Shown: piece by piece, positions 19,943-36,698 of the stretch
How positions within the stretch are numbered: the stretch's first letter is position 1
How the letters are laid out: every line of letters begins with the position of its first letter
Assembly: GCA_049523355.1 (NCBI GenBank)
Contig: JBEKMY010000022.1
Location: 7,440-71,439, forward strand
DNA: 64,000 nucleotides
Source: Smithella sp.
GTDB taxonomy: Bacteria; Desulfobacterota; Syntrophia; Syntrophales; Smithellaceae
Direction: 5' to 3'
Notes under the pieces: generated by a model
What the model saw: only the letters and a program-made list of their open reading frames with translations
Databases searched by the model: none
Told to the model about the DNA's origin: nothing
Program-made: the position numbers and the translations under genes

Positions 19943-20316
19943 GGAGAAGATCAGATGATCGTCGGCAGAATTTATCTGCCGGAGGAAAGTCCGAGCTCCA
20001 CAGGGCAGGATGGTCGCTAACGGCGACTGGGGGTAACCCTAAGGAAAGTGCCACAGAAAATATACCGCCCGGAGCGAAAGTTCAGGGTAAGGGTGAAAAG
20101 GCGAGGTAAGAGCTCACCGCTTTTCCGGTGACGGAAAAGGCATGGTAAACCCCATCCGGAGCAAGACCAAATAGGAGAACGTTTAAGGGCTGCCCGCCTG
20201 ATGTTCTCGGGTAGTGTCGCTAGAGGCAGCAGGCAACTGCTGTCCCAGATGAATGATCATCGCCGCGTAAAGGGTGACCGAAACGCGGAACAGGACTCGG
20301 CTTATGATCTTCTCCC
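19943..20316 (+). ncRNA. rnpB: RNase P RNA, bacterial type A
   Basis: GAGGAAAGTCCGAGCTCCACAGGGCAG, GTGCCACAGAAA and ACAGGACTCGGCTTATGATC universal blocks. The P1 helix closes ggagaagatc (19943-) with gatcttctcc (-20315). Confidence 0.9.
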
Positions 20317-20340
20317 GTGCCTGTTTATACCGCTTCTAAA

Positions 20341-20472: not shown

Positions 20473-20715
20473 TTACAAATGCTTTCCTTTCTCCTTTGCC
20501 TCCTTATAAAGCGTCCACATGCACAGACCGATGGCCAGAAGAAAGGAACAGACCATAAAGTTCGGTGTGGTTCCCAGGATTTCATCTATAAGGTAACCAA
20601 CATAAAGGAACAGGAAAGAAGATAGCACCATTGCAAATCCCCAGGCCGACAGCATTAATATGCCTCTAATCGTGTTGAACTGCTCACGATTTGCATTGGG
20701 TTTCTTTACCGGCAT
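20473..20715 (-). CDS. AtpZ/AtpI-family small membrane protein (putative F0F1-ATPase gene-1 protein)
   Basis: Two TM helices with the YVGYLIDEILGTTPNF pattern typical of PF09527. Start chosen at MPVKK. Confidence 0.6.
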   Translation of the reverse strand: MPVKKPNANREQFNTIRGILMLSAWGFAMVLSSFLFLYVGYLIDEILGTTPNFMVCSFLLAIGLCMWTLYKEAKEKGKHL

Positions 20716-20806
20716 GGTGCGCGCTACCTTTATTTCAGTGGAAATTATCAAACATAAACATCCGGGTGCTCTTGGAAAAAAATCGCTGGTCAATATTTAA
20801 TAGATG

Positions 20807-21001
20807 TTATTCTAATTGAATAAAATTTATGAATCTTTTTACCAGATCAATTCCGGAATCTGTAAAGAGGGCAACTAATATAATCATAAGAATGAATATT
20901 ATGATTAATTCGCGGTTGCGCATTTTCTTATATTTTCTTTTTATAAAACAAAGAATAATGCCACCTGCGACTAATACAATTAGATGCGGCAAAAAGTTCA
21001 T
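20807..21001 (-). CDS. small two-TM membrane protein, hypothetical
   Basis: 64-aa ORF with two hydrophobic helices separated by KRKYKKMRNR. Confidence 0.4.
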   Translation of the reverse strand: MNFLPHLIVLVAGGIILCFIKRKYKKMRNRELIIIFILMIILVALFTDSGIDLVKRFINFIQLE

Positions 21002-21133
21002 TTTGCTCTCCTTTTATTTACAATAATAAATATATTTAACAGGAAATGCCTCTTAAAAATATTATATATTATGTTTGATGAAAGTTCATGCTATTTATTA
21101 AAATGATTACATTGAAATTGGAGTTTCAGGAAT

Positions 21134-21164
21134 AAAAAAGGCCGAATCGAAATTCGGCCTTTTT
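21134..21164 (-). terminator. rho-independent (bidirectional-type) terminator after the Cache gene
   Basis: aaaaaa ggccgaat cgaa attcggcc ttttt. Confidence 0.75.
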
Positions 21165-21189
21165 GGTTAATTTATAAAATTAAGTTTAA

Positions 21190-22497
21190 TTATTTGTCGT
21201 CGTCATCATCATCGTCGAACGATTCCGAACCTTCCGAACCTTTTGGAACCTCCGCCTGTAATGAACGGGTAATTCCACGAACCAGGAGCAGCATAATAAA
21301 GAAGAGAATAATCATGGAAGCGATAAGAATAAAGATGACCGTCGCAGTCCATGCTTTTGATTCCTTTTCAATATTCTTGGATAACTTCGTTGCTTCTGCG
21401 TTAAATTTATCAACATCCAGTCCCAGTCCTACCCAGCCGAAACCGGCGGGTTGGGGAAGATTTGACGCATAAAACTTGATCGGAGCATAGGCGACGAACT
21501 TGGTGACCCCATTATATTTGTACATTAAAATCCCTGCTTTGCCCTGTGAAGCTTCTTTCGTGATTTTAAATATATTGGGATCCATAAAGCCCAACTGGAA
21601 CATGTTCAAAGCTTCCATGCCTTTCTTTGACATTTCTGCCGTATTCTCAGCCGTAAGAGTTGGAACAATTTTCCCATCGGGGGCGAGCCCAACAATATGT
21701 GAATCAGTAGGATGGGCAATCATAAAACCTCGATGGTCGACCATATAAGCGTAATTACCGGTAGAAGCATCCGCTTCAAATACCTTTTCCGCTTGTGTAG
21801 GAATAAGGTGATCGGTAAACTCGGCCAAATGACGATAATCCAGGGACAGTACAATTATACCGGCAAAGCCATTTTGATTGAACACAGGCGTCGCAAAACG
21901 GACGACTCCGGAAAACCTTTGTCCCTTATCGAACGCTGCCTTGTCGACATATAACCCTGTTACAGGGGAGACATAACTTTCGCCTTTGTTAAGATTTTTT
22001 GTCTTGGCAAAATAATCTTCAGTCTTATATGTTGTATTGGCCGGATTGCTGACATTAACCAGTTTTTTTGCCGCCTGTCCGTCCACAATTTTAATTAGTT
22101 CATTGCCGTTTTTGTCAATCAACGCCATTTCTTTATACAGCGGGATTAACACCTGCTGTATTTTACCGTTACTTTTGATCCATACCGGTTTTTTATTTTC
22201 AGAAACAAACTGCTTGTACATGCCTTCTGATGCGGGAATGATGGTGGCAACTTGCAAATCTTTATTGCATTCTCTTAAGAAACTGGCAACTTCGTTTGCT
22301 GTATTGACGGCTCTTGCTTTTATATCTTCCTGAACTCTGTTATCGAGAACTTTGATTGTTCTCTCGTTTATAGTAACCCCCAGCTTAAACATGCCGTTGG
22401 CAATTAAGAAAGCCATTAATGATAAGGGGATTACGATAAGCAGGAAGAACACGCCTCCTATATTTAAAGACCGCTTATCTTTTTTAGTTTTTGACAT
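21190..22497 (-). CDS. membrane-anchored double-Cache-like extracytoplasmic domain protein without output domain, poly-Asp C-terminus
   Basis: N-terminal TM, then about 330 aa extracytoplasmic with Cache-type patterns (YVSPV..., GVVRFATPVF, YAYMVDHRGFMIAHP, FVAYAPI), then a second TM. The cytoplasmic tail is only about 30 aa and ends SFDDDDDDDK. Confidence 0.75.
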   Translation of the reverse strand: MSKTKKDKRSLNIGGVFFLLIVIPLSLMAFLIANGMFKLGVTINERTIKVLDNRVQEDIKARAVNTANEVASFLRECNKDLQVATIIPASEGMYKQFVSENKKPVWIKSNGKIQQVLIPLYKEMALIDKNGNELIKIVDGQAAKKLVNVSNPANTTYKTEDYFAKTKNLNKGESYVSPVTGLYVDKAAFDKGQRFSGVVRFATPVFNQNGFAGIIVLSLDYRHLAEFTDHLIPTQAEKVFEADASTGNYAYMVDHRGFMIAHPTDSHIVGLAPDGKIVPTLTAENTAEMSKKGMEALNMFQLGFMDPNIFKITKEASQGKAGILMYKYNGVTKFVAYAPIKFYASNLPQPAGFGWVGLGLDVDKFNAEATKLSKNIEKESKAWTATVIFILIASMIILFFIMLLLVRGITRSLQAEVPKGSEGSESFDDDDDDDK

Positions 22498-22545
22498 TAC
22501 TAGTTCCCCCTAACCTTTGTTATTTTGTAGTTAATTTGTTTTATA

Positions 22546-22920
22546 TTAACCCAAAAAATAACGCATGTAAGGGTTAGCATAGAGAAGAACCAGAGAAACG
22601 ACCAGCGCGTAAATCGCGATGGATTCAGCCATGGCCATACCAACCAGCATGGTCATCATGATTTTGCCCTGTACTCCGGGATTTCTTCCAACTGCCTGAC
22701 AGGCACCACTTGCTGCGTTACCAATACCTGCGCCAGCGCCGATAGCTCCGAGGCCGATAGCCAGACCGGCACCGATCATTGCGGCCATAGCAAAGTATAC
22801 TTTAATGTAAGATTCGCCTGCCGGAATGGCTTCTGCGGCAAAAACGAGCGGACTCGCTATGAGCAGAACTGCTACAGATGTAAACGCGGTTAGAATTTTT
22901 TTACCAAAATTGTGTGACAT
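22546..22920 (-). CDS. atpE: F-type ATP synthase subunit c with N-terminal signal-peptide-like extension
   Basis: Hairpin core GLAIGLGAIGAGAGIGN...GRNPGVQGKIMMTMLVGMAMAESIAIYALVVSLVLLYANPY. It is preceded by KKILTAFTSVAVLLIASPLVFA-AEA. Confidence 0.85.
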   Translation of the reverse strand: MSHNFGKKILTAFTSVAVLLIASPLVFAAEAIPAGESYIKVYFAMAAMIGAGLAIGLGAIGAGAGIGNAASGACQAVGRNPGVQGKIMMTMLVGMAMAESIAIYALVVSLVLLYANPYMRYFLG

Positions 22921-23028
22921 TGTTTATCTCCTTTCATAATAAATTGTTTATTATTACTTCCTGTTACCATAACATAAATCGAAAGCCATGGGAAAGAGAA
23001 ATAATTTAACTCATTCTGTTCAAACTTA

Positions 23029-23045
23029 TTGCATGACTTATGCCA
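23029..23045 (-). promoter_or_regulatory. sigma-54 (-24/-12) promoter upstream of atpE
   Basis: The minus strand reads TGGCATAAGTCATGCAA, which is TGGCA-N7-TGCA with exact GG-N10-GC spacing. It lies about 100 nt upstream of the atpE ATG. Confidence 0.6.
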
Positions 23046-23222
23046 TAGCTTAAGCGCCGGGGGAAAATACTTCACGATTAAATAACGTGACTGTTGAAAA
23101 AATATCAATCTAATCTGTTGAGATTGTTTCATTTCACAAAAAATAAAAAATAAAAAAATTTATATAAAAAAATATCAGCAGGTTTTTTTACAATCTTAAT
23201 GGCATCAAAATTTGCGGCCGCA

Positions 23223-23261
23223 TTTAATGTTTTGTTAAACGTGTCTTTATAAAACATTAAA
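23223..23261. promoter_or_regulatory. 11-bp perfect inverted repeat (possible activator UAS)
   Basis: tttaatgtttt-N17-aaaacattaaa, about 180-215 bp upstream of the -24 element. An A-tract block (about 23137-23172) lies in between. Confidence 0.3.
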
Positions 23262-23443
23262 ATCAATTTGTGGAAGGCGGCTTTTTACGTAAGAGCGCTT
23301 GTCAGTTCTCTTTCCTTTTATATGTCCGCGATAATGCTCTTAAACAGGCTCGGAAAACACTTTTTTATATTTTTATTGAAATTTTCCGCTAAGGCCGTTA
23401 ATATCGTGAAAATAAAATAAGAAACTTTCATTAAAGGATTATT

Positions 23444-23623
23444 ATGCAGGAGATTTTAACGGCAGTCACTTACCTTATTGTATGGTTTTTTTGTTCTTAT
23501 ATTCTAAAAATCGAAAGTGGTTTTGCAAAACTTCTTATTTCACTGACAGCGGCAATTCTTGTTTATGTCTTAATAGGTATCAAGCTTTCCCATAAAGAAA
23601 ATAAAAAGGATAAAGAATATTAG
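23444..23623 (+). CDS. small two-TM membrane protein (59 aa), hypothetical
   Basis: MQEILTAVTYLIVWFFCSYILKIESGFAKLLISLTAAILVYVLIGIKLSHKENKKDKEY. The stop codon abuts the kinase GTG start. Below the ORF-track length cutoff. Confidence 0.4.
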   Translation: MQEILTAVTYLIVWFFCSYILKIESGFAKLLISLTAAILVYVLIGIKLSHKENKKDKEY

Positions 23624-26248
23624 GTGACTTTATTCAATAAAATTAAAATCCTTCTCTATAAGGCTGTGAGAGTGCGCATCTGGTTTGCCAGCATCACGGT
23701 TATCATCCTGTTTCTGCTTTTAGCTCTGACAGTGAACAGCGCCCGCGAAAAGGATATTGTGAATATCTTCAGCCGGCAGCAGCTTGTCAATGTTCAAAAC
23801 ACCGCAAAAAGAATGACAGATGTTTTTTCGCAGGTTGGGAAAAACATTGCTTTGTTTTCTCATTTTGATCCGCAGTTAAAAATGCCGCCCGGAGAAATGG
23901 ATAGTTATTATAAAGTACTGTCTTCCGGATGGGAAAACACTTTTGATACGATTGTCTATTTTGACGCTTCAGGCAAGATAGAGAGCTTTTACCCGCGCAA
24001 TACACGGCCTGCAATAAATTTATCAGATCACTTTAATATTATCCGGAAAAAACAAAAACAATATTTAGGTCTGGCTTTGCCCCAACCATCAGACGCAATC
24101 AGTTTAAAACAAAAAACGAACAGGTATCTGGTTGTTGGCTACCCTGTCAGGCGGCAAGACGGTAAATTTACCGGAGCGTGGTTAGTTTCATTTTCTCTTT
24201 CGGCGGTTATGGATAAATACAATAAACAAACAATAAATAATGAGTTGGGTGAACTCTGGTTAATCGATGAAAAACAGCAGGTAATTATTAATCGTGATTC
24301 AGAATTTAACGGGAGATATATAAAAGACATTTTGAAAAACAGCAGTGAAGCTAAAATGGATTTTTCGTCGGATAAAGGCGGTTTCTTTGAATCGACGGTT
24401 TTCCTGAATAATAAAAAACATCAGCGCAGTATTATTGCTTATTATCCATTGTTAAATGGAGATAAAAAATGGACTCTTCTGATTGTTGCTCCTTACAGTC
24501 AGGTCATTTCACCTCTACGCAAAACTTTTTTCTACACGCTTTTCAGTTCATTATTGCTCATTATTGTAGTTATTATTGCCAGCATGTCTTTTGCCTATAA
24601 AGAGGGTAAAAGACTGCGCATCACGGAAGAGAAGAAGAGATTAAATGAGCGGAAGGACTGGCAGGAAAAACTGCTGCGGGAAAAGAAAACTATAGAAGGT
24701 ATTATTGAAGGTTCGCCCATTCCCAGCTTTGTGATCAACAATGAACATAAAGTCATATTATGGAATCGGGCCTGTACGGAACTAACAGGTTATTCCGCTC
24801 AGAACATGCTCGGCACGGATAATCATTACAAGCCTCTCTATTCAGTCAAAAGGCCGCTTATCGCGGATTTGATCGTTGATAACCAGGTGGAGAACTTGAG
24901 TAAATATTACGGCAATAAAAAGATAAAGAAATCCGAAAAAGTTTTAGAAGCATATGAGGCGACGGATTATTTTGACAGTGTCGGCGGCCGCAGCCGGATA
25001 TTATATTTTCTGGCGGCTCCCATCTATGATGAAAAAGGTGAAATAATAGCGGCGATTGAAACACTGCAGGATATTTCACGTGAAAGGGAAATGACGAAAA
25101 GTTTAAGCGAATACGCCGAGACGCTGCAAAATGAATTGATCGAAAATATAGAACTCAGACGCCAGATAGAAGACATTTACAACTATTTACAGTCGATAGT
25201 GAACAGTTTGCCGGATATAATTTATGAAATTGATGAAAACGGCATCATCAATTTCGTCAGCCGCGGTTTGAGGAAAAAAGCGGAATCGTCTCCCCGTGAA
25301 TTCAAGAACAGGCATTTTCTGGAATTTGTCGCGTCAGGGTATGAAGATTTTGTGATGTCCAAATGGGAAGATGCGAAAAAAGGCATTTATCATCCTTATG
25401 AGATCGAAGCGAAGGATAAGGAGGGACGCAAGCGGAATCTACTGATTGCAACCTCTCCCGTTATTGGAACCAATCATTATCTGCTGGTTCAACGTGATAT
25501 TACCGAATTTAAAAATCTGGAGAAAAAACTTTACGACAGCCAGAAGCTGGCGGCTCTCGGACAGTTGTCGGCAGGGATAGCTCATGAAATACGCAATCCT
25601 CTTTCTTCAATCAAAATGAGTTTGCAAATATTGGCAAAACGCATGAATCCCGAAGGGAACGATTTGAAGAGATTCAAAATCGCGGAAAAAGAAGTGGACC
25701 ATCTGGAGATGCTGGTCAATAATATTTTAGCTTTTGCCAAACCGGTGGACGCGAAGAAAGCCCCTGTAAATCTGTCCAAAGTTCTGGAGCAGGCGCTGGC
25801 CATGGCGGAAAAGGAAATCACCGACAAAAAAATTACGGTGCGTACAAATTTCGGCGATATTCCTCCCGTTGCGGTTGATTCGGCAATGATGGCTGATGCT
25901 TTTTTAAATGTTATCCGCAACGCGTCGGAAGCCATGGCGGATAAAGGCGAAATCACGATTTCGCTTAGCTGCCCGGATGAAATTCGTCAGTCAGTGGTTG
26001 TGGAGATTAAAGATAATGGCAGCGGCATTGATGACGAAGATATGCCGCATATATTTAATCCTTTCTTTACGCGTAAAAATTATGGTACTGGTTTGGGACT
26101 TTCTCTGGTAAAGAAAATAATTGATATTCACCAGGGTACGATTGATATTTCCAGTAAGATGAATGAGGGAACGACGGTGCTTATTGTTTTGCCGCTGGGA
26201 ACAGAACTGGCCCGTTCATTCGTTACAAACGAAGAAGGTAATGTATGA
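23624..26248 (+). CDS. sensor histidine kinase (TM, Cache-like periplasmic domain, TM, PAS x2, HisKA, HATPase_c)
   Basis: H-box SAGIAHEIRNPLSS, N-box NVIRNASEAM, DNGSGI, GTGLGLS. Two TM segments flank an extracytoplasmic domain of about 270 aa. Confidence 0.9.
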   Translation: MTLFNKIKILLYKAVRVRIWFASITVIILFLLLALTVNSAREKDIVNIFSRQQLVNVQNTAKRMTDVFSQVGKNIALFSHFDPQLKMPPGEMDSYYKVLSSGWENTFDTIVYFDASGKIESFYPRNTRPAINLSDHFNIIRKKQKQYLGLALPQPSDAISLKQKTNRYLVVGYPVRRQDGKFTGAWLVSFSLSAVMDKYNKQTINNELGELWLIDEKQQVIINRDSEFNGRYIKDILKNSSEAKMDFSSDKGGFFESTVFLNNKKHQRSIIAYYPLLNGDKKWTLLIVAPYSQVISPLRKTFFYTLFSSLLLIIVVIIASMSFAYKEGKRLRITEEKKRLNERKDWQEKLLREKKTIEGIIEGSPIPSFVINNEHKVILWNRACTELTGYSAQNMLGTDNHYKPLYSVKRPLIADLIVDNQVENLSKYYGNKKIKKSEKVLEAYEATDYFDSVGGRSRILYFLAAPIYDEKGEIIAAIETLQDISREREMTKSLSEYAETLQNELIENIELRRQIEDIYNYLQSIVNSLPDIIYEIDENGIINFVSRGLRKKAESSPREFKNRHFLEFVASGYEDFVMSKWEDAKKGIYHPYEIEAKDKEGRKRNLLIATSPVIGTNHYLLVQRDITEFKNLEKKLYDSQKLAALGQLSAGIAHEIRNPLSSIKMSLQILAKRMNPEGNDLKRFKIAEKEVDHLEMLVNNILAFAKPVDAKKAPVNLSKVLEQALAMAEKEITDKKITVRTNFGDIPPVAVDSAMMADAFLNVIRNASEAMADKGEITISLSCPDEIRQSVVVEIKDNGSGIDDEDMPHIFNPFFTRKNYGTGLGLSLVKKIIDIHQGTIDISSKMNEGTTVLIVLPLGTELARSFVTNEEGNV

Positions 26249-27630
26249 TGCCGAGTATTCTTGTTATTGATGACGACGCTTCGATTGCGGAAACGCTGGA
26301 TCTGTATTTAACTGAAGAAGGGTACAAAGTTCGCACCGCGCTGACCGGCACGGAAGGTTTGAATAAGTATGTGCAGGCGCCATCGGATGTTGTCATTCTG
26401 GATATTCGTTTGCCTGATATTGACGGATTCACTGTCCTTGAAGATCTTAAAGAAGAAAACGAAAACGTTAAAGTCATTATGATAACCGCTTTTCATGATA
26501 TGGAAACAACCATTAACGCGATGAAGAGCGGCGCTTTCGATTATATTCATAAACCGGTCAATGTTGATGAACTGGATATGGCGATTAAGAAAGCCCTGAA
26601 ATCTCTGGAAATGGAAAAAAAGATTGATGGACTTTTAATGGAGCCGTCAAGGACTTTCCGGGTTGGAGATATCATCGGGACCGGCAATGAAATGCGGGAA
26701 ATTTTTAAAACGATCGGCACTGTTTCCCAGAGCCGCACCACCGTGCTGATTCAGGGTGAGAGCGGCACCGGCAAGGAATTGATTGCCAAAGTCATTCATC
26801 ATAATACGTCTCCTAATGAACCCTTTATCGCGGTCAACTGTTCCGCTATTGTCGAGACTCTGCTGGAATCCGAATTGTTCGGCCATGAAAAGGGCTCTTT
26901 TACCGGCGCGATTGCCCGCAAGCTCGGCAAATTCGAACTGGCGCGCTTTGGCACGGTATTTCTGGACGAAATCAGCGAAATGTCCGTTAACCTGCAGGCC
27001 AAGCTACTGCGGGTTTTGCAGGAAATGGAATTCGACAGGGTGGGAGGAAAAGATAAGGTCAAGGTAAACGCCCGCATTATGGCCGCTACTAATAAAGATT
27101 TAAAGACACTGGTTAAGGAAGGAAAATTCCGCGATGATTTGTATTATCGCCTGAATATCGTATCTATTAACTTGCCGCCGCTTCGCTCACGCAGGCAGGA
27201 TATTCCGCAGTTGATAGACTATTTGCTTGCAAAAATTAATCTGGATTTGCATAAGAAGATTATCGGGGTTTCCGACGAAATGATGGAAATATTCATGAAT
27301 TATAACTGGCCGGGCAATGTACGGGAACTGGAAAATCTGCTCGTGCGCGCCTGTGTTGTGGCCAAAGGCCAGGTGCTGGGAGTCGGAGATTTTCCGGAAC
27401 TGGGCAAGGAAGATGCTCTTAAATTGCCGGATGATGCATCCGCGGATTTGTTCAAATCGCCGGAAGCGGGTAAATTTCTAACGCTCGATGAGGTGGAAGA
27501 ACGCTACATCCGAAAAGTCATTAAAGAGACGGATAAAAACAAAGGGGAAATTTGCGAGGTGCTCGGAATTTCCCGGCCGACGTTTGAGAGGAAGTTGGAA
27601 AAATACGGAATCACCTTCGAAAGAGAATAA
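26245..27630 (+). CDS. sigma-54-dependent response regulator (REC, AAA+ activator, Fis-type HTH)
   Basis: ILVIDDD...DIRLPDIDG receiver, GESGTGKE Walker A, ESELFGHEKGSFTGA (GAFTGA-type loop), C-terminal HTH. ATGA overlap with the kinase. Confidence 0.92.
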   Translation: MMPSILVIDDDASIAETLDLYLTEEGYKVRTALTGTEGLNKYVQAPSDVVILDIRLPDIDGFTVLEDLKEENENVKVIMITAFHDMETTINAMKSGAFDYIHKPVNVDELDMAIKKALKSLEMEKKIDGLLMEPSRTFRVGDIIGTGNEMREIFKTIGTVSQSRTTVLIQGESGTGKELIAKVIHHNTSPNEPFIAVNCSAIVETLLESELFGHEKGSFTGAIARKLGKFELARFGTVFLDEISEMSVNLQAKLLRVLQEMEFDRVGGKDKVKVNARIMAATNKDLKTLVKEGKFRDDLYYRLNIVSINLPPLRSRRQDIPQLIDYLLAKINLDLHKKIIGVSDEMMEIFMNYNWPGNVRELENLLVRACVVAKGQVLGVGDFPELGKEDALKLPDDASADLFKSPEAGKFLTLDEVEERYIRKVIKETDKNKGEICEVLGISRPTFERKLEKYGITFERE

Positions 27631-27755
27631 AGGGCTTTTGAAAAACGGCCATCTGCTGCGTTTCCCTCACCCTTTTGTCGTTGCGACGTATGCAGAAAAT
27701 ACGTCTCACTCCTCAGGGGTCGGGGGCCTTGCATCTGACCATTTTTGAAAAGCCC
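27631..27755 (+). repeat. about 125-bp imperfect-palindrome intergenic repeat, copy E1
   Basis: Termini agggcttttgaaaaa / tttttgaaaagccc. Central hairpin gacgtat-gcagaaa-atacgtc. Colinear with the reverse complement of copy E3. Confidence 0.8.
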
Positions 27756-28103: not shown

Positions 28104-28787
28104 ATGGAGGTTATTATGATTAACATCACCCCGTTAAAAGAAAAAATATTGAATTGCATGACACAATGGGAAGAGGAACTATGGAGGTTATCAGAGCAGG
28201 CAAACCAAAATAGAAATTTGAGTCAAATGGATAAGACTAATTCAATTATGAGAGAGCAGAAAAAGATTTCTGATGCAATTAAAGACCTATTTGACGAAAT
28301 AGGAAAGGTTCAGAAAGAACCCGAAACTAATTCAGCAGACCGGACAATAAAAATAATTTGTCCACGAGAAGGAGAAAAACCTACTGCAATAAGAATTGGT
28401 GAGGAAGAAATACGAATCGATAGCTGGAATCAAATCCTTATAGTTATAGCAAATTGGATTCTTGAAGATAAAAAAAATCTTCCCGAAATTAAAAATTTTA
28501 TAAGTCCCAATAAGGAAGGGTTTGCAAAATCAGCGCAATGTAAGCCGCTAAAAAATGGTTGGTTTATTGAAGTAGGAGACAGTGCAAAAACACTAATTAA
28601 TAAAGCTAAGAAGCTATTAAGAAATACAGGTTACACAGAAGAAATTCTCGTTGAAACTAAAGATGAGACAATAACTTCTGCAGTTTCGGATAGGGTTTTT
28701 GATAATCGAACAAAAGTGATAAAACTTTATCGTAACGCTTCCCCAGAAAAACGGAATAAAATAAAAGAATTGTTAGGTCTCAATTAA
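28104..28787 (+). CDS. hypothetical protein, AT-rich orphan
   Basis: 227-aa ORF, visibly more AT-rich than its neighbours. No motif I can recognise. Bracketed by repeat copies E1/E2 and E3. Confidence 0.6.
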   Translation: MEVIMINITPLKEKILNCMTQWEEELWRLSEQANQNRNLSQMDKTNSIMREQKKISDAIKDLFDEIGKVQKEPETNSADRTIKIICPREGEKPTAIRIGEEEIRIDSWNQILIVIANWILEDKKNLPEIKNFISPNKEGFAKSAQCKPLKNGWFIEVGDSAKTLINKAKKLLRNTGYTEEILVETKDETITSAVSDRVFDNRTKVIKLYRNASPEKRNKIKELLGLN

Positions 28788-28950: not shown

Positions 28951-29074
28951 AGGGCTACTTAAAAATGTTCAGATGCAAGGCGCGCGAGTATCGCGGAGTG
29001 AGGCCTACTTTTTCGCAGGTCGCAGCGACGCGAACGGAGCGCAACGCCGCAGGTGAGCGTTTTTGAACAGCCCT
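28951..29074 (-). repeat. about 125-bp imperfect-palindrome intergenic repeat, copy E3 (inverted relative to E1)
   Basis: Termini agggctacttaaaaa / tttttgaacagccct. The reverse complement aligns position by position with E1. Ends 13 nt before the engB ATG. Confidence 0.8.
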
Positions 29075-29087: not shown

Positions 29088-29684
29088 ATGAAAATAATAA
29101 GTGCGGAATTTATAAAAAGCGCGGTCTGGCCGCCTCAATATCCTCCGGCGACGCTTCCGGAAATAGCTTTTGTCGGGCGGTCCAACGTGGGCAAATCATC
29201 TTTGATCAACACGCTTGTCGGGCGCAAGAATCTGGCGAAAACAAGCAATACTCCCGGACGGACGCAGTTGATCAATTTTTTCGCGATTAACGAAAAGGTG
29301 TCATTTGTCGATCTGCCGGGTTATGGATTTGCGAAAGTTGCTCAGTCTGTAAAGAAAGACTGGGGCGATATGATTGAGGCCTATCTGCGGGAGAGACTCA
29401 ATCTGGCTCTGGTAGTTTTTATTCTGGATATCCGGCGCGATCCCAGTGTTGATGATTTGGCCCTGCGCGATTGGCTGGAACATTATCGGATACCTTATGT
29501 ATATATTTTGACCAAAGTCGATAAATTATCCAACAATCAGGCGATTGCCCAAAAGCGCGCGATTGAAAAATCTTTGCGTGTATCGGCTGCAAACAAGCTC
29601 ATCCTTTTTTCGGCAATAACACAAAAGGGCAAGAGCGATATCTGGCAATTCATTGAAGAACATTTAAGGGCGCTTCCTGATTAA
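29088..29684 (+). CDS. engB: ribosome biogenesis GTP-binding protein YsxC/EngB
   Basis: EIAFVGRSNVGKSSLINTL, DLPGYG, TKVDK. Confidence 0.9.
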   Translation: MKIISAEFIKSAVWPPQYPPATLPEIAFVGRSNVGKSSLINTLVGRKNLAKTSNTPGRTQLINFFAINEKVSFVDLPGYGFAKVAQSVKKDWGDMIEAYLRERLNLALVVFILDIRRDPSVDDLALRDWLEHYRIPYVYILTKVDKLSNNQAIAQKRAIEKSLRVSAANKLILFSAITQKGKSDIWQFIEEHLRALPD

Positions 29685-30117: not shown

Positions 30118-31293
30118 ATGTCACAAGCAGTTACGCCTTACCTGGAAATGTCCCAGGCGATAATGGATGCCGGTGGCGAGGCGCTGAAAAAATGCTATCA
30201 GTGCGGAACCTGCTCAGGCACCTGTCCGTGGACACCGATCACCCATTTTAATATCCGCAAGCTTGTCCGTTATGGCCAGTTGGGCTTAGACGGCATCGAA
30301 GAGTTTATGTGGGGTTGTTCCACCTGTAAGTTCTGTGTGGACAGATGCCCTCGCGGTGTCGAAATTATTGATGTGGTTACGGCCATTCGCAATGTCTATA
30401 GCGGCGGTGGCATGTTGCCGCAGACTTTGCGCTCTTTTGTCGGTTCCATGTCGGCCAGAGGGAATCCCTGGTCGGGCGATCAGGCCAGCCGAAACGACTG
30501 GGCCAAGAACAAATATCCTCTTTACACCAAAGAAACGGAGTATTTATTTTTTAGTTGTTGCACCGTTTGTTACGATCCCCGCAATAATAAACTGGCCAGG
30601 GCTGCCGCTGAAGTATTGAATCAGATGGGAGTCAGTTGGGGTTTGCCGTCCGTGGATGTTAACTGCTGCGGCGAGAGTTTAAAAAAGGTCGGCGATCTGG
30701 AGTTATTCGAAAGGCTGAAAAGCAATAATCTGAATTTCTTCAATTCTTCCGGTGTAGGAAAAATTATTACCGTATCACCCCACTGCCTGGCATCATTCAA
30801 GAAAGATTACGGCAATGACTATGAAGTAATCCATCTCAGTCAATTGATTGATCAAAAGATAAAAGAAGGCAAGCTGACCCCCAAGAAAGATTTTGGCGGC
30901 ATCAAGGTCACGTATCATGATCCCTGTTATCTGGGACGGCACAGCGGTGTTTATGATGCGCCGCGCGACGTACTGAAATCCATACCGGGCCTTGAATTTG
31001 TCGAGATGAAGCGCAGCCGCGAACAAAGCATGTGCTGCGGCGGCGGCGGCGGCGGATTATGGATGGAGAAACTCAAGGGAGAACGTTTAAGCGATCTGAG
31101 AATTGAAGAGGCGCTGTCTACCGGAGCGTCTATTCTGGCTACGTCCTGCCCGTATTGCATTACCATGTTTGAAGACAGTATCCGGACGCTCAATGCTGAT
31201 GATAAAATTTCAGTAAAGGATGTTACGGAACTTGCTCTGGAGAGCCTGGGAATTAGTATTGATGAGCCGGTTGTGGATACCTGCAGCGTTTAA
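30118..31293 (+). CDS. soluble HdrD-like Fe-S protein (HdrC-type 2x[4Fe-4S] fused to HdrB-type double CCG domain)
   Basis: CYQCGTCSGTCP and CSTCKFCVDRCP, then CCG motifs NCCGES and MCCGGGGGG and the cysteine pattern CPYC. No TM segments. Confidence 0.85.
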   Translation: MSQAVTPYLEMSQAIMDAGGEALKKCYQCGTCSGTCPWTPITHFNIRKLVRYGQLGLDGIEEFMWGCSTCKFCVDRCPRGVEIIDVVTAIRNVYSGGGMLPQTLRSFVGSMSARGNPWSGDQASRNDWAKNKYPLYTKETEYLFFSCCTVCYDPRNNKLARAAAEVLNQMGVSWGLPSVDVNCCGESLKKVGDLELFERLKSNNLNFFNSSGVGKIITVSPHCLASFKKDYGNDYEVIHLSQLIDQKIKEGKLTPKKDFGGIKVTYHDPCYLGRHSGVYDAPRDVLKSIPGLEFVEMKRSREQSMCCGGGGGGLWMEKLKGERLSDLRIEEALSTGASILATSCPYCITMFEDSIRTLNADDKISVKDVTELALESLGISIDEPVVDTCSV

Positions 31294-31355
31294 TGCAGTT
31301 GAAAATAAATAAAGTCAGAATGGTGATTCTGAAGGAAAAAAAGTAGGGAGAAATT

Positions 31356-33305
31356 ATGAGCAGAATTGGTGTTTTTGTTTGCCACTGCGGTTTGAATATA
31401 GCCAAGACGGTTCGTGTAAGTGAACTGGCGGAGTTTGCGGCTACACTTCCTGATGTTGTTGTAGCAAGGGACTACAAGTTCATGTGCTCCACGCCCGGAC
31501 AGGAGATGATCGCTAACGATATCAAGCAATATAAACTGGATCGTGTCATTGTTACAGCCTGTTCACCATTAATGCATGAAAAAACATTCCGCAAAGTTAT
31601 TGAAAGCGCCGGTTTGAATCAATATCTGCTGACCATCGTCAACATACGTGAGCAGCTTTCCTGGGTAACTCATGATATCGAAGAAGGCACATCAAAAGCC
31701 AAAGCGCTCTTGAATGGCGCGGTTTACAGGGCACGGAATCTGGCGCCGCTTAGCTCGCGGGTTATCGACGTTAACCCCGATGTGATGGTTGTCGGCGGCG
31801 GTATTGCCGGAATTCAGGCCGCGCTGGAGTTGGCCAATACGGGGAAAAAAGTTTACCTGGTCGAAAAGAATTCCACTATCGGCGGCCATATGGCTCAGTT
31901 CGACAAAACGTTTCCCACGCTGGATTGTTCAGCCTGTATTCTGACGCCCAAGATGGATGCCGTTTTGCAGCACAAAAATATAAATTTAATGACCTATTGC
32001 GAAGTAAGCGAAGTCAAGGGATATGTTGGCAATTTTGATATTACGGTTAAACAGAAGGCGCGTTATGTCGATCACAGCAAGTGTAATGCCTGTCTGGCCT
32101 GCACGGAAAAATGTCCCGGCAAAGGCGTTTCTGAATGGGATGAAGGGCTGGTAAAAAGAAAAGCTATTTACATTCCCTTCCCGCAGGCCGTACCGCAAAA
32201 GCCTGTTATCGACAAAGAGTCCTGTACTTATTTTATCAAAGGCAAGTGCAAACTTTGTCAGAAAGTCTGCGAACAGAAAGCTATTGATTACGAACAGCAG
32301 GATACTTTCTCCACGGTGAAAGTCGGTGCTGTAATTATAGCGACCGGCTATGATCTGATGGATACCAAACCGCTGGTTCAATACGGTTATGGCCAATATC
32401 CTGGCGTATATCACTCGCTGGAAGTGGAAAGACTGTTTAATTCCGCAGGTCCCACCGGCGGAAAGGTGACGCTCAGAGACGGATCGGAACCGAAATCTAT
32501 CGCAATCCTGCATTGTATCGGCAGCCGTGATAAAAATTATTGTGAGCATTGCAGCCGCGTCTGCTGTATGTATTCGCTTAAATTCGCTCATCTCTTCAAA
32601 GAAAAAACCTCCGCGGATGTTTATCAGTTTTATATTGATATGAGAGCGGCGGGCAAAGGTTATGAGGAATTTTACAACCGCCTGATAGAAGAAAACGTGA
32701 AGTTTATCCGTGGTAAAGGAGCCCGCGTCGCGGAAAGCGAAGAGGAGCCCGGCCGCCTGATTATGGAAGCGGAAGATACGATTACCAGTAAATTTATGAG
32801 GGTTCCGGTTGATATGGTTGTGCTTTGTCCAGCCATTGTGCCCCGGGAAGATGCAAAGGAAATTGGCAGACTATTTAATCTGAGCACTGACAAGCAGGGA
32901 TTTTTCATGGAGCGGCATCCCAAACTGGCGCCTCTGGCTACCATGACAGAAGGTATTTTTATCGCCGGTGTTTGTCAAAGTCCGAAAGATATTCCCGATA
33001 CCGTAGCGCAGGCCAACGGCGCGGCAGCGGAAGCTCTAACGATTGTTTCCATGGACAAAATGGAACTTGATGCGACCACGGCAATGGTCAATCCGGCCGC
33101 ATGTTGCGGCTGCCAAAACTGCGTGCGAGTGTGTCCTTACGGCGCTCCTTCATATAATCCCGATAAACGGGTTTCGGAAATTAATGAAGCTTTGTGTAAA
33201 GGATGCGGCTGTTGTGCATCGGTCTGTCCGACGTCGGCCATTATCGCCCGTCACTTTACCAACGAGCAGGTGTTGGCTGAGATGGAAGGCTTAATGGAGT
33301 TTTAG
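31356..33305 (+). CDS. hdrA: heterodisulfide reductase subunit A family flavoprotein
   Basis: VMVVGGGIAGIQAALELA FAD motif, multiple Cys clusters including the C-terminal CCGCQNCVRVCP...CKGCGCCASVCP. 649 aa. Confidence 0.9.
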   Translation: MSRIGVFVCHCGLNIAKTVRVSELAEFAATLPDVVVARDYKFMCSTPGQEMIANDIKQYKLDRVIVTACSPLMHEKTFRKVIESAGLNQYLLTIVNIREQLSWVTHDIEEGTSKAKALLNGAVYRARNLAPLSSRVIDVNPDVMVVGGGIAGIQAALELANTGKKVYLVEKNSTIGGHMAQFDKTFPTLDCSACILTPKMDAVLQHKNINLMTYCEVSEVKGYVGNFDITVKQKARYVDHSKCNACLACTEKCPGKGVSEWDEGLVKRKAIYIPFPQAVPQKPVIDKESCTYFIKGKCKLCQKVCEQKAIDYEQQDTFSTVKVGAVIIATGYDLMDTKPLVQYGYGQYPGVYHSLEVERLFNSAGPTGGKVTLRDGSEPKSIAILHCIGSRDKNYCEHCSRVCCMYSLKFAHLFKEKTSADVYQFYIDMRAAGKGYEEFYNRLIEENVKFIRGKGARVAESEEEPGRLIMEAEDTITSKFMRVPVDMVVLCPAIVPREDAKEIGRLFNLSTDKQGFFMERHPKLAPLATMTEGIFIAGVCQSPKDIPDTVAQANGAAAEALTIVSMDKMELDATTAMVNPAACCGCQNCVRVCPYGAPSYNPDKRVSEINEALCKGCGCCASVCPTSAIIARHFTNEQVLAEMEGLMEF

Positions 33306-33317
33306 TTATGGCATTAT

Positions 33318-33421
33318 AAGAAGTCCGTATGCTGCGTTGCGCTTTTTTTCGCTTCGCTGCGACCTGCGAAAAAGTAGGCCTCGCTTCGCGAACATCGCGC
33401 GCCTTGCCTCTGGAGTTTTTT
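33318..33421 (+). repeat. repeat family copy E4 (core only, termini degenerate) in the hdrA-mvhD intercistronic gap
   Basis: ctgcgttgcgct...gctgcgacctgcgaaaaagtaggcctc...cgcgcgccttgc is near-identical to the reverse complement of the E3 core. Confidence 0.75.
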
Positions 33422-33457
33422 ATTGCGCCATACAATGATTTTATAGAGAGGAAAGTT

Positions 33458-33874
33458 ATGTCATTTGAACCGAAAATATTGGGTATAGCCTGCAACTGGT
33501 GCACATATACAGGGGCGGATCTTGCCGGCACAACCAGATTGCAGTATCCGCCGAATGTCCGGGTTGTCCGGGTTATGTGCTCAAGTCGCATCAATCCTTC
33601 CTTTATATTCAGAGCTCTTCAGTTTGGCGCGGATGGAGTTTTAGTAGGCGGTTGCCATCCCGGAGATTGTCATTATAATACCGGAAATCTCTATGCGCGA
33701 AGAAGGCTTGCCACGACAAAAAAGATTCTGGAATTTGCAGGAATAGAACAGGGGAGATTCCGGGTGGAATGGATTTCCGCTTCCGAAGGCAACAGATTTG
33801 CCGAAGTTATTGAGGAGTTTACAACTCAAATTAAGAATCTTGGCCCCCAGACGAAGTTGAAGATACAGGAGTAG
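33458..33874 (+). CDS. MvhD/FlxD-type hydrogenase iron-sulfur (delta) subunit
   Basis: ILGIACNWCTYTGADLAG...VRVMCSSRINP...GADGVLVGGCHPGDCHY. Start moved to MSFEPK (GAGAGGAAA RBS) because the upstream part of ORF 33329.. translates the repeat. Confidence 0.88.
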   Translation: MSFEPKILGIACNWCTYTGADLAGTTRLQYPPNVRVVRVMCSSRINPSFIFRALQFGADGVLVGGCHPGDCHYNTGNLYARRRLATTKKILEFAGIEQGRFRVEWISASEGNRFAEVIEEFTTQIKNLGPQTKLKIQE

Positions 33875-33888
33875 GGTTGGGAGAAAAT

Positions 33889-34752
33889 ATGACTGATTTT
33901 AAAAAAATCGAAGAAAATTTAAAGAAGGAAGCAAAAAGGCTGTTGGAGTCCGGCGAAGTGACCGTAGTGCTGGCTTATGGAAAAGGATTCGATGAACAAC
34001 ATCCGATGCCCTACGCGGCGAAAAGTGTTGCGGACGTCGAAAATATCGTATTCAACGAATACTGCACTTATAACATGGCTCGTTATCTTGTTCGTTACCC
34101 GCAAGGGACAAAAATTGCCATCGCCGTGAAGGCAGCCGACAGCCGGGCGGTTGTTCAGCTCATCCAGGAAGAAAAAGTCAAGAGAGAAAACCTTGTGCTG
34201 CTGGGAATTCCCGTGACCGGTATGAAAAATTCCAAGACAGGCGAAGCGATTGATAGCAAGACCACATGCGGCATGGTTAATCCTGTTCTGTATGATGTTT
34301 TACTGAGCGAGGAAATCCATGGACAGAAGCCCGTGTCCCCCTACGATGTCCTGGCTGAATATGAAGCGATGGACAATGATGCCCGCTGGGAATTCTGGAA
34401 GAGTCAATTGGATAAATGTATTCGTTGTTATGCCTGCCGTAAAGCCTGTCCAATGTGTTATTGCGACCCGTGCTTTATTGATCAGCTAAAACCAAAATGG
34501 GCGGACAAGGCGCCGCAGTCTCCCGGTAATATTATGTATCACCTGACACGTTTTCATCATCTGGCGGGACGTTGTATTGACTGCGGTGAGTGTTCACGCG
34601 CGTGTCCGGTGGACATTCCTTTGTATCTTTTCCATAAAAAGGTGGCCAAGGAGTGCGAAGAGATGTTTAAGCAGGCGTCCGGTATGAGCATAGAAGACAA
34701 GCCCGTGCTGGTAAATTTCCGAGTCGAAGATTCAGACAAAATTTTGGAGTAA
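33889..34752 (+). CDS. FlxC-like 4Fe-4S protein
   Basis: CIRCYACRKACPMCYCDPC and CIDCGECSRACP clusters. Position after the MvhD-like gene. ATG at 33889 with GGGAG RBS (the ORF track uses TTG at 33877). Confidence 0.75.
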   Translation: MTDFKKIEENLKKEAKRLLESGEVTVVLAYGKGFDEQHPMPYAAKSVADVENIVFNEYCTYNMARYLVRYPQGTKIAIAVKAADSRAVVQLIQEEKVKRENLVLLGIPVTGMKNSKTGEAIDSKTTCGMVNPVLYDVLLSEEIHGQKPVSPYDVLAEYEAMDNDARWEFWKSQLDKCIRCYACRKACPMCYCDPCFIDQLKPKWADKAPQSPGNIMYHLTRFHHLAGRCIDCGECSRACPVDIPLYLFHKKVAKECEEMFKQASGMSIEDKPVLVNFRVEDSDKILE

Positions 34753-34762
34753 GGAGCGGTTT

Positions 34763-35800
34763 GTGTTGAAGAAAAAAGCAATAGAAAAAATACCCGAACT
34801 GGCAGCGGCGTTGATGGATAAGGGGTCGCTTCTTGCCCCCGTCAAAGAAGCCTCCGGTCATAACTTCGCGGAGATTAAAGATCCGCAAAAGGTTGATCTG
34901 AATTTCTACAATACCATTATGAGCCCGAAGGGAGCGTTTTTCCCCCATAAGGAAGATTTTATTAAATATAATACAGGCAAGCCCACGTCTGAGGCCGAAC
35001 AGATAGAAGTGGATCCCAAACCGGTATTCCTGTTTGGAGTGCGTCCCTGCGATGTCAGAAGTTTCTCCATTATGGATATCCACTTCAATGCCGCGGGAAT
35101 CGTTGATCCCTATTGGAGCCAGAGAAGAAAAGCAACAACCGTATTCGGCTATGCCTACGACTTGAATCAGCCGGTTGATGCCACCGATTTTTATAATTCG
35201 CTGGGAATTTATGCTGCCGATACCGAAGGCAGCGACATTTTTATGGTGAAGACAGATAAGGATTTGCTGCTCAAAGGCATTACCCCCAAAGGAGAGGAAC
35301 TTCTTGCAAAACTCAATACGCTTGTTGATGCGGGAGGGGATGATGAGAAATATTTTGAAGAAACTCTAAAAAAGGGTAAAGAATATAAAACACGTTTCCT
35401 GTGCATCGATCAGGACGTCATTGCCAAAAAACTGGAGGCCATTTTCGATAACAACGATTTCTGGACAAAAGCTTCATCCGCGTGCCTGAGTTGCGGCGCT
35501 TGCACATTTGTCTGCCCGAACTGCTATTGCTTTGACATTTGTGACGATACGATGTTCAGCAAAGGAACGAGGCGCAGAGTATGGGATGCCTGTATGTTTA
35601 CGGATTTCACACTGGAAGCGAGCGGCCATAATCCAAGAACACAGGTTTTCCAGAGATTAAGGCAGAAGATAAATCACAAATATTCATATCATGTGAAAAA
35701 ATACGGCGTAATTTCTTGTGTTGGCTGCGGACGCTGCACGCGTTCCTGTCCGGTCAACATTGATATATATTCGATTATTGAAGAAGCGCTGAAAGTATAA
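34763..35800 (+). CDS. FlxB-like / anaerobic sulfite reductase subunit A-like 4Fe-4S protein
   Basis: CLSCGACTFVCPNCYCFD and CVGCGRCTRSCP clusters. GTG start after an AAGGAG RBS. Confidence 0.75.
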   Translation: MLKKKAIEKIPELAAALMDKGSLLAPVKEASGHNFAEIKDPQKVDLNFYNTIMSPKGAFFPHKEDFIKYNTGKPTSEAEQIEVDPKPVFLFGVRPCDVRSFSIMDIHFNAAGIVDPYWSQRRKATTVFGYAYDLNQPVDATDFYNSLGIYAADTEGSDIFMVKTDKDLLLKGITPKGEELLAKLNTLVDAGGDDEKYFEETLKKGKEYKTRFLCIDQDVIAKKLEAIFDNNDFWTKASSACLSCGACTFVCPNCYCFDICDDTMFSKGTRRRVWDACMFTDFTLEASGHNPRTQVFQRLRQKINHKYSYHVKKYGVISCVGCGRCTRSCPVNIDIYSIIEEALKV

Positions 35801-35837
35801 GTTGCGTGTATTGAAAAAACATTTTTGAGGAAAAAAG

Positions 35838-36698
35838 ATGTCAAATAACAACCCTTACATACCTGTACCGGTTCAGATTGCCAGGATCACAAACGAAGTT
35901 GATACCAATGATATCAAAACATTTCGGTTTACTTTTCTGAACAAGGAAGACGAAGAAAAATTTAAATACACGCCCGGACAATTCGGTGAGCTGTCCATTT
36001 ATGGCAAAGGTGAATCGCCCATCGGTATTGCCTCTTCACCCACGGACCCGGGCTATGTTGAATTTACCGTCCAGAGAGCGGGAACAGTTGTGCCCGGTAT
36101 GGTGACTGCGGCTCTTCATGACCTGGAGGAGGGCGCTCAAATCGGTTTGCGCGGTCCTTTGGGCAACTCCTGGCCGATTGAATTCCTGGAGAATAAAAAT
36201 ATCGTGGTGGTTGGCGGCGGTTTTGCCTTTACAACCCTGCGTTCGCTGATTAATTACATGCTGTACAAGGACAACCGTAAGCGATTCGGTGAAATCACTG
36301 TTGTCTACGGCGCAAGGAATCCCGGCCTGCTCCTTTATAAGGACGAACTTTCCGCATGGGAAAAGAGAGATGATATCAAAACAGTCATCACCGTGGATAA
36401 GGGCGATGAAACATGGAAGGGCAGGGAAGGTTTTGTTCCCGCCGTATGCAAGGAAACGGCGCCTTCTCCCAAGAATGCAGTAGCCGTCATCTGCGGTCCG
36501 CCCATCATGATCAAGTTTACACTGCCGGTCTTTTTTGAGTTGGGTTTTTCCAAAGAAAACATTCTGACCTCACTGGAGATGCGCATGAAATGCGGAATCG
36601 GCAAATGCGGTCGCTGCAATGTCGGCAGTCAGTATGTCTGTAAAGACGGCCCCGTGTTTTCGCTGGCCCAACTGGATCAACTGCCCCGCGATTTTTAA
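35838..36698 (+). CDS. FlxA-like FAD/NAD(P)-binding oxidoreductase with C-terminal [2Fe-2S] (AsrB/PyrK family)
   Basis: FNR-like fold motifs (PGQFGELS, VVVGGGFAFTTL) and C-terminal CGIGKCGRCNVG. Confidence 0.8.
   Translation: MSNNNPYIPVPVQIARITNEVDTNDIKTFRFTFLNKEDEEKFKYTPGQFGELSIYGKGESPIGIASSPTDPGYVEFTVQRAGTVVPGMVTAALHDLEEGAQIGLRGPLGNSWPIEFLENKNIVVVGGGFAFTTLRSLINYMLYKDNRKRFGEITVVYGARNPGLLLYKDELSAWEKRDDIKTVITVDKGDETWKGREGFVPAVCKETAPSPKNAVAVICGPPIMIKFTLPVFFELGFSKENILTSLEMRMKCGIGKCGRCNVGSQYVCKDGPVFSLAQLDQLPRDF

Follow-up and report, generated by a model that had tools for sequence, protein, structure and literature searches.

Introduction

Acetobacterium woodii reportedly carries several genes for the c subunit of its ATP synthase (c1 and c2/c3) within the atp operon; they are said to be co-expressed and to build one mixed Na+ ring, its c1 being a double hairpin. 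The locus described here lies in a 64-kb stretch of DNA from Smithella sp. (the window; all positions are numbered over the whole window) and offers a different arrangement. Its centre is a lone gene, atpE, for the c subunit of an F-type ATP synthase, which we call c1. This gene is followed by one for a membrane protein with a predicted double Cache domain (the Cache protein), and a divergent operon for a two-component system with a sigma-54 enhancer-binding response regulator stands upstream. A second c gene, which we call c2, is found in related genomes. As in A. woodii (structure 4bem), several c paralogs occur in one bacterium for a single F1Fo. Unlike in A. woodii, both paralogs are single hairpins, probably of the H+ type, and they belong to separate loci, one of them apparently under sigma-54/two-component control and with a Cache partner.

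Other elements of the locus also have known counterparts. YycH and YycI are membrane-anchored extracytoplasmic accessory proteins without a transmitter that modulate the kinase WalK. The Cache protein resembles them in being output-less and encoded beside a two-component system, but YycH and YycI are neither Cache domains nor co-transcribed with a subunit of the ATP synthase. The kinase and the regulator of the locus have the NtrC-type domain architecture of AtoS/AtoC and ZraS/ZraR, to which their best NCBIfam similarities lead, and they share with these systems a divergent target operon with a -24/-12 promoter and an upstream dyad. Signal peptides are present on the c subunits of Aquifex (Aquifex aeolicus) and of Campylobacterota, and a similar hydrophobic, cleavable-looking extension is carried by both paralogs described here.

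In Podospora anserina, two structurally different and differentially regulated c genes for one ATP synthase are reported to adjust energy metabolism (PMC4956034). Unlike the present locus, that system is eukaryotic (nuclear-encoded, mitochondrial), and it is not known to include a sensor partner or sigma-54/two-component control. The N-ATPase is encoded by an alternative F-type operon with a full subunit set, AtpR, AtpQ (PF09527) and c subunits bearing Na+ ligands (PMC2881411). The present module is similar in being a second set of F-type membrane components beside the normal enzyme, accompanied by a PF09527 protein, but it has a c subunit only, no AtpR and no Na+ ligands. UncI and CGL160, which belong with the AtpZ/Atp1/UncI group, are reported to be implicated in c-ring formation (PMC4383579; PMC9806626). 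Like them, the AtpZ-like protein encoded in the window is a small membrane protein linked to an atp gene and a member of PF09527; unlike them, this second copy sits with an alternative c subunit and not before atpI-atpB. No description of a c-subunit/Cache operon, or of an NtrC-type system dedicated to a c subunit, was found in the literature searched. An earlier note on this DNA, made from the sequence alone, likewise knew of no described system of this composition. Regulated c isoforms, the N-ATPase and NtrC systems are already known; what is new is apparently the pairing of c1 with the Cache protein under its own two-component control.

Conservation of the c1-Cache locus

The c1-Cache-regulator locus is real and strongly conserved. 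On one side of the sigma-54 promoter lie c1 and then the 435-amino acid (aa) Cache protein, which consists of a transmembrane (TM) helix, the double Cache domain and a second TM helix. Divergently, on the other side, lie a 59-aa TM protein, a Cache/PAS kinase, the sigma-54 response regulator and, as a frequent neighbour, EngB (Table 1). A species scan with one genome per species yielded 186 stretches with a relative of c1, and the locus figures given here rest on the best 80 of them, in which c1 is 69-99% identical to that of the window. These 80 loci were surveyed by tblastn, and each denominator counts the loci long enough to judge. The Cache gene lies directly 3' of c1 in 72/73 loci; the gap measures 35-58 nt in all but two of them. 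On the 5' side, the response regulator is present in 61/64 loci, and the kinase and the 59-aa gene in 60/64 each.

All carriers among these 80 are Smithella, Smithellaceae, Syntrophaceae, Syntrophales or unclassified "delta proteobacterium" metagenome-assembled genomes (MAGs), and peatland metagenome contigs bear identical copies of the locus. The flanks vary around the kept core: rnpB, rnpA and yidC lie downstream in the window, PPDK in loci L012-L015, and RNase H, rpoD and dnaG in L016.

The conserved sigma-54 element and the c1 leader

The -24/-12 element upstream of c1 is the only match to TGGCAY-N6-TGCW in the window. A single match of this kind is not significant, because chance expects 0.59 per window; its significance comes from conservation. 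All 92 distinct c1 upstream regions (92/92) contain a GG-N10-GC element that agrees with TGGCAC-N5-TTGCA at no fewer than 9 of 11 positions and is located 79-143 nt, mostly 100-112 nt, before the start codon. The sigma-54 element was found in 0/54 distinct c2 upstream regions, 41 of which are without any GG-N10-GC. In addition, TTTAAC-N5-RTTAAA-type dyads recur upstream of the -24 box, at a distance of about 190-200 nt in Smithella-like loci and of about 110-145 nt in other clades. The conserved element, the recurring dyad and the adjacent enhancer-binding regulator together constitute strong comparative evidence for activator-dependent sigma-54 transcription of c1. The A/T-tract that separates this promoter from the candidate activator site is a possible bend or IHF site. 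The GG-N10-GC element, the A-tract and the inverted repeat that the earlier note had read upstream of atpE were all confirmed, and its claim of a conserved activator-dependent operon around a c subunit and an output-less Cache protein is supported by the locus census and by promoter conservation. A search of the window for other sigma-54 promoters that could share the regulator gave no convincing candidate. At the other end of the operon, the strong terminator announced after the Cache gene corresponds to a hairpin with T-runs.

The 5' untranslated leader of c1 contains a hand-projected hairpin whose conservation is suggestive. Its 5' arm is rich in pyrimidines and its 3' arm in purines, the loop UUAUGUUAUGG is conserved, and compensatory-looking changes occur in several genera. 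In a sequence-based alignment (A4), 68.9% of the cells are paired, versus 47-53% in slid controls, and the covariation score was reached by 12/500 shuffles. RNAalifold predicted no structure on the MAFFT alignment of the leader. Masking of the Shine-Dalgarno sequence by the pyrimidine arm was considered as a role for the hairpin but is not supported, the mean pairing probability being 0.44 versus 0.51 for shuffles.

Two c subunits in one lineage

The c1 protein passes the models PF00137 (70.7 bits, cut-off 24) and TIGR01260 (47.5 bits, cut-off 43.95). Its N-terminus is signal-peptide-like (KKILTAFTSVAVLLIASPLVFA-AEA), and its hairpin is intact, with the GRNPG loop and, in helix 2, MAESIAIYAL with the carboxylate Glu. 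The earlier note had already read the N-terminus, the loop and the Glu of the lone c subunit in this way. In alignments, GRNPG and AESIAIY match the solved c-rings 2wie, 4mjn, 3zk1 and 4bem, the last of which is the best structure match. Across 85 variants the mature part is nearly invariant, including both of these motifs, which indicates strong constraint. Of the Na+-ligand set (Gln32, Glu65, Ser66, Thr67 and Tyr70), c1 keeps Glu, Ser and Tyr and has Ile in place of both Gln32 and Thr67; the lack of these two ligands points to an H+-type subunit. The score on the N-ATPase c model TIGR03322 is 69.9 bits, below its cut-off of 130.85. PRK08482 (105 aa), presumably a Campylobacterota model, aligns to residues 18-119 of c1.

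Neither atpB nor a second c gene was found in the 64-kb window when its open reading frame (ORF) list was examined, a further 20 ORFs were scanned with Pfam and all six frames were searched for motifs. The ORF list and the Pfam scans of window ORFs also gave no other atp gene and no atpR near c1. The absence of atpB beside atpE, as first noted, extends to the whole window.

A second c gene was nevertheless found in relatives, as the earlier note had proposed to check. In the homolog search seeded with c1, all matches listed were orthologs at least 75% identical, and the paralog c2 came from the species scan and the literature. In a peat/fen clade (L030, L031, L033-L035, L038, L042 and L066), c2 is convergent to the Cache gene. 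Its mature part shares about 54% identity with that of c1, and c2 is likewise a lone gene with a comparable signal-peptide-like N-terminal extension. Orphan position and signal peptide, which had been taken as marks of the module, are therefore lineage traits. In a metagenome scan with c2, 18 contigs had c2 at 3-7 kb from a candidate atpB encoded on the other strand; for one of the scanned loci (L170), Pfam confirmed both c2 and the atpZ-atpI-atpB operon.

The gene complement of one relative has been published. Ca. Smithella cisternae M82_1 has one F1 and b/b' cluster, one atpB (4_23) and two c genes, 4_31 and 437_33 (PMC5606693 Table S9). Since L029 of our species scan is scaffold 437 of the Ca. 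Smithella cisternae assembly, and since the Hdr/Mvh-like genes 437_40-44 match genes beside the module, 437_33 is the ortholog of c1. It follows that the other c gene of this Smithella, 4_31, lies eight genes from atpB. In a genome with two c genes but one atpB and one F1/b cluster, c1 has to function either in the one enzyme available to both or apart from it. The module itself contains no a, b or F1 gene, and the term "self-contained" applied to it in the earlier note has to be dropped. The module is distinct from the locus that holds atpZ-atpI-atpB, and to that extent the contrast with a housekeeping atp locus drawn in the note is supported. The F0 genes are dispersed throughout this lineage, and what sets c1 apart is how it is regulated and with which protein it is paired. 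One genome thus contains two c paralogs with different promoters, and we infer from its position and promoter that c2 is the housekeeping c subunit.

Both paralogs retain a Gly-rich helix 1 and the RNP loop, and E-S-x-x-I-Y is present in helix 2 of each. The residues equivalent to Gln32/Thr67 are Ile/Ile in c1 and Met/Leu in c2, and both subunits are probably of the H+ type. Among the fixed differences are the loop sequence (RNPGV in c1, RNPEA in c2), the residues between the glycines of helix 1, which are Ala in c1 and Thr in c2, and the residue that precedes the Glu, which is Ala in c1 and Ile in c2.

In one complete chromosome (L066, 10001-11700; OY970063.1), the signal-peptide part of c1 is interrupted by an in-frame stop and the Cache gene is truncated, whereas c2 remains intact. 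Either the module is decaying there or the changes are errors of long-read sequencing.

The Cache protein

The Cache protein passes dCache_1 (PF02743) with 47.7 bits against a cut-off of 45, over residues 118-342, and matches HK_sensor_dom_bact with 26.9 bits. One hydrophobic helix lies on either side of a domain of about 345 residues. The tail after the second helix (TM2) has about 29 residues, contains no domain and ends ...SFDDDDDDDK. The protein had been announced as a TM-Cache-TM protein of this length, spacing and terminus, and with the dCache_1 match that description is borne out. An exhaustive search of cluster representatives gave 506 relatives. Those that match at 30-52% identity are mostly longer proteins that continue beyond the shared TM-dCache-TM module into HAMP, GAF, PAS and kinase domains, and the Cache protein stops where the HAMP domain would begin. 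It thus contains no cytoplasmic transmitter or output domain of the kind that defines a signal-transduction receptor.

Among 85 distinct orthologs, the most conserved stretch is the first helix, TM1 (VFFLLIVIPxSLMAxLIANGxxKLG), and a juxtamembrane motif, RGIxRS..AEVP, is also conserved. Copies linked to c1 end in 6-10 Asp/Glu residues, usually followed by Lys, with the truncated copy in L066 as the sole exception. An acidic tail is absent from the one copy found that is linked neither to c1 nor to the two-component system. This paralog of 416 aa occurs in a Syntrophales MAG, GCA_035416845 (L018, 8471-10243, and L019), where it stands with a 64-aa-like ORF and an AtpZ-like gene beside pta/ack, and neither a c subunit nor a two-component system adjoins it. 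Across the wider family (30-58% identity), the polar residues Glu123, Glu133, Arg200, His223, His230, Asp254 and His262 are invariant and may form a ligand or metal site.

A single-sequence search of the Cache protein against solved structures gave no match. A family profile built from 13 diverse relatives gave marginal matches to the solved double Cache structures 2p7j, 3lid, 4wy9 and 3lib, with E-values of 0.05-0.9. The AlphaFold model, made from a shallow alignment (30 sequences, 79-92% identical to the query), has a predicted local distance difference test (pLDDT) score of 39, and at this confidence only the order of its secondary-structure elements is compatible with a double-Cache fold. 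The idea that the protein is a copy of the kinase's own Cache domain was rejected.

The divergent regulator operon

The composition given for the divergent operon in the earlier note, that is, a small TM protein, a Cache-like kinase and a sigma-54 activator, was confirmed. The regulator matches Sigma54_activat (222 bits), Response_reg (102 bits) and HTH_8 (33.7 bits), and its translation contains the motif GSFTGA; it has the receiver (REC) domain, the AAA+ sigma-54 interaction domain with a loop of the GAFTGA type and the HTH_8 domain of the NtrC family. The closest NCBIfam model is AtoC, on which it scores 464 bits against a cut-off of 714. The kinase scores 269.6 bits on the AtoS equivalog, the cut-off of which is 646. 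Neither score reaches its equivalog cut-off, and the kinase and regulator are therefore not orthologs of AtoS/AtoC. The periplasmic domain of the kinase scores 38.7 bits on dCache_1, under the cut-off. For the 59-aa protein no family match was obtained with Pfam, NCBIfam or defence-system models.

The kinase differs in one Syntrophales clade. In L015 (7348-9420, minus strand), its ortholog is a soluble PAS-PAS-PAS kinase of 690 aa with no TM helices and no Cache domain, and the 59-aa TM gene still overlaps the kinase start. In this clade the stand-alone Cache protein and the 59-aa protein are the only membrane proteins of the module, besides c1, that are positioned to sense the outside.

Discussion

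Smithella and Syntrophus are syntrophs that live from fatty acids or alkanes on the smallest energy quanta known, and they also run the ATP synthase in reverse for uphill electron transfer. The reading of the locus that we prefer, and to which we assign about an even chance, is that it is a signal-inducible operon for an alternative F1Fo rotor subunit with a dedicated membrane partner. The adjacent kinase would sense a signal through its Cache and PAS domains (through PAS only in one clade) and phosphorylate the NtrC-type regulator, which would then bind the upstream dyad and turn the sigma-54 promoter on. As a result, c1 would be produced together with its obligatory partner, the two-TM protein with a large periplasmic domain, predicted to be a double Cache, and an acidic cytoplasmic tail of limited length. 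Genes for a second AtpZ-family protein and for the 64-aa membrane protein lie nearby in many genomes. The new c1 could replace the constitutive c2 in the Fo rotor or mix with it. Because the genome has one a subunit and one F1, c1 most plausibly joins the same enzyme, instead of or beside c2. Its entry might alter the ring size, and with it the number of ions per ATP, the coupling to F1 via the loop (RNPG in c1, RNPE in c2) or the stability of the rotor. Such a change would suit organisms near the thermodynamic limit that run the enzyme both ways. For the Cache protein, the most likely role is that of a partner that acts in the membrane and depends on a ligand, perhaps as a feedback co-sensor for the kinase or as an assembly or regulatory factor specific for c1.

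To our knowledge, this would be the first bacterial case in which a rotor gene is the dedicated target of a sigma-54 two-component system, and we know of no F-ATPase with direct sensory control of the rotary motor. For the tuning of the ion-to-ATP ratio in such syntrophs, a conserved second c gene under its own sensor system would provide a concrete mechanism, namely exchange or mixing of rotor subunits. If the Cache protein binds the rotor, a periplasmic metabolite would directly control a rotary enzyme; if it is merely a feedback co-sensor, the locus would still be a natural example of conditional ATP-synthase remodelling. The carriers are relevant to methane production in peat and digesters.

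Several observations weigh against the preferred reading of an inducible alternative rotor subunit. Three loci (L064, L077 and L098) consist of the promoter, c1 and the Cache gene without an adjacent two-component system, and a fourth (L086) has no Cache gene and no kinase match. A comparison of the Cache protein with the Cache domain of the adjacent kinase revealed no similarity, and the predicted double-Cache fold rests on HMM (hidden Markov model) scores just above threshold together with marginal profile matches. The sequence differences between c1 and c2 do not reveal a ring size, and the helix-1 Gly motif is kept in both. Finally, c1 surpasses c2 on PF00137 (70.7 versus 51-58 bits), so that by sequence alone c1 could be the main subunit.

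This last point leads to the alternative that survives best, which we regard as unlikely. According to it, c1 is the principal everyday c subunit and c2 is accessory; the sigma-54/two-component system sets the level of Fo by energy or substrate status, with the Cache protein as an accessory sensor in feedback on the kinase. Such a role would agree with the better fit of c1 to the general c-subunit HMM, with its very wide distribution in the order and with the AtpZ-family gene that accompanies it in many genomes. RNPG loops, moreover, occur in the functional c subunits of Campylobacterota, and the alignment to PRK08482, presumably a model for this group, would fit as well. However, it is c2 and not c1 that lies within a few kb of atpZ-atpI-atpB, and c2 is without an activator-dependent promoter. 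A promoter that needs an activated enhancer-binding protein would be odd for an essential, constitutive subunit. The L066 chromosome, in which sequencing error is possible, combines a stop in c1 and a broken Cache gene with an intact c2. Even if c1 were the everyday subunit, the central point would be left, namely two differently controlled rotor isoforms.

A bolder proposal concerns the Cache protein itself. Through TM1 and its poly-acidic tail it might bind the c1 ring and act as a ligand-dependent block, gate, brake or stabiliser of proton flow or rotation, either in the F-type enzyme or on a free c-ring. The strict c1-Cache pairing with short spacing in 72/73 loci is what such a contact would lead one to expect, and TM1 is the most conserved segment of the protein. 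The acidic tail, present in the copies linked to c1 (bar the truncated one in L066) and absent in the unlinked copy, would also fit, as would the fixed loop difference (RNPGV versus RNPEA), by which the c1 loop is without the usual acidic residue. The protein has no transmitter domain, and usual signalling is thereby impossible. The proposal is nonetheless entirely inferential: the conserved helix and acidic tail could just as well serve to bind the kinase or the 59-aa protein, and RNPG loops are also present in ordinary c subunits elsewhere. We consider it distinctly improbable.

That c1 and the Cache protein form a separate stress-induced membrane device outside the ATP synthase, for example an ion-conducting oligomer, is very improbable. 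The module does have its own regulation and its own small membrane proteins, and it is without a, b and F1 genes. However, c1 keeps every rotor feature and is strongly constrained at exactly those positions, an AtpZ-family protein travels with it, and the literature searched offered no precedent for a device of this kind. A purely historical adjacency of c1 and the Cache gene, with no functional link, can hardly be credited when the pair is kept in 72/73 species-level loci while its surroundings rearrange, with a short constant intergenic gap, a single promoter and a single terminator.

Accessory genes and other features of the window

The positions of the module and of its immediate neighbours are collected in Table 1.

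Table 1. Genes and sequence elements of the c1-Cache locus, in window coordinates
Feature	Position	Strand	Basis or remark
c1 (atpE), F-type ATP synthase c subunit paralog	22546-22920	minus	PF00137, TIGR01260; 124 aa
TM-dCache-TM protein without output domain (Cache protein)	21190-22497	minus	435 aa; begins 48 nt after c1
Sigma-54 -24/-12 element TGGCAT-AAGTC-ATGCA	23030-23045	minus	TGGCATAAGTCATGCA, 109 nt before c1 ATG
Inverted repeat, candidate activator site for the response regulator	23223-23261		16-nt arms, 88% complementary
A/T-tract between candidate activator site and promoter	~23135-23190		Read from sequence
Conserved hairpin in c1 5' untranslated leader (suggestive)	22953-23005	minus	Alignment-based
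Intrinsic-terminator-like hairpin closing the c1-Cache operon	21135-21164		13-bp stem, 5 GC pairs, A and T runs flanking on both strands
59-aa two-TM protein	23444-23623	+	Stop codon directly followed by kinase GTG start
Sensor histidine kinase (TM, Cache-like periplasmic domain, TM, PAS x2, HisKA, HATPase_c)	23624-26248	+	Pfam
NtrC-type sigma-54 enhancer-binding response regulator	26245-27630	+	REC, AAA+, HTH_8
64-aa two-TM protein, accessory	20807-21001	minus	ORF
AtpZ/AtpQ-family (PF09527) small membrane protein	20473-20715	minus	PF09527; gene callers' start 20715, 80 aa
EngB/YihA-type GTPase, conserved neighbour at end of regulator operon	29088-29684	+	Pfam; synteny in most loci

The small TM protein and the AtpZ-like protein do follow the terminator, as the earlier note had stated. 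As parts of the module they did not hold up: the AtpZ-like gene is found in 25/43 loci and the 64-aa gene in 26/43, and they lie immediately downstream, downstream in inverted orientation or on the far side past EngB, so that both are better described as accessory. At full length the AtpZ-like ORF spans 20793-20473. Its product passes PF09527 (34.2 bits, cut-off 26.6), carries the NCBI name AtpZ/AtpI family and is 31-32% identical to AtpZ-like ORFs just upstream of a candidate atpB in two metagenome contigs (L134 and L143). It thus appears to be a paralog of the protein encoded in the atpZ-atpI-atpB operon. Use of the window protein as a route to atpB was tried and rejected, since the homologs found all lie within this same module.

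A relative of the 64-aa protein, 91 aa long and with a signal-peptide-like N-terminus of its own, is encoded 1.1 kb downstream of c2 in L170 (11449-11724). The long form of 91 aa also accompanies the AtpZ-like gene beyond EngB in the clade in which c1, the Cache gene and c2 adjoin. Defence-system models matched neither the small proteins nor the Cache protein.

Between the regulator and EngB, the window contains an ORF of 227 aa (28104-28787) with no family match, including among defence-system models. It is flanked by an inverted repeat of about 60 nt (27696-27755 and 28952-29011) and by direct repeats of 31-49 nt at 27742, 27930 and 29060. It looks like an insertion, because no such ORF was called between regulator and EngB in the loci of other genera.

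An Hdr/Mvh (Flox)-like cluster lies near the module (30118-39005, + strand) and comprises genes for CCG-domain, HdrA-like, MvhD/FlpD, ferredoxin and GltD-like proteins. Similar genes adjoin the module in L012-L015 and on Smithella M82 scaffold 437 (genes 38-44), and a link of these neighbours with energy metabolism is possible. In the module region, Rfam gave nothing besides a class A RNase P RNA (334 bits; 19943-20319, + strand), located between the AtpZ-like gene and an rnpA-yidD-yidC-jag-mnmE cluster. Near the far end of the window, a c-di-GMP-I riboswitch (72.9 bits; 61520-61610, + strand) lies upstream of an ORF of 672 aa (61745-63763).

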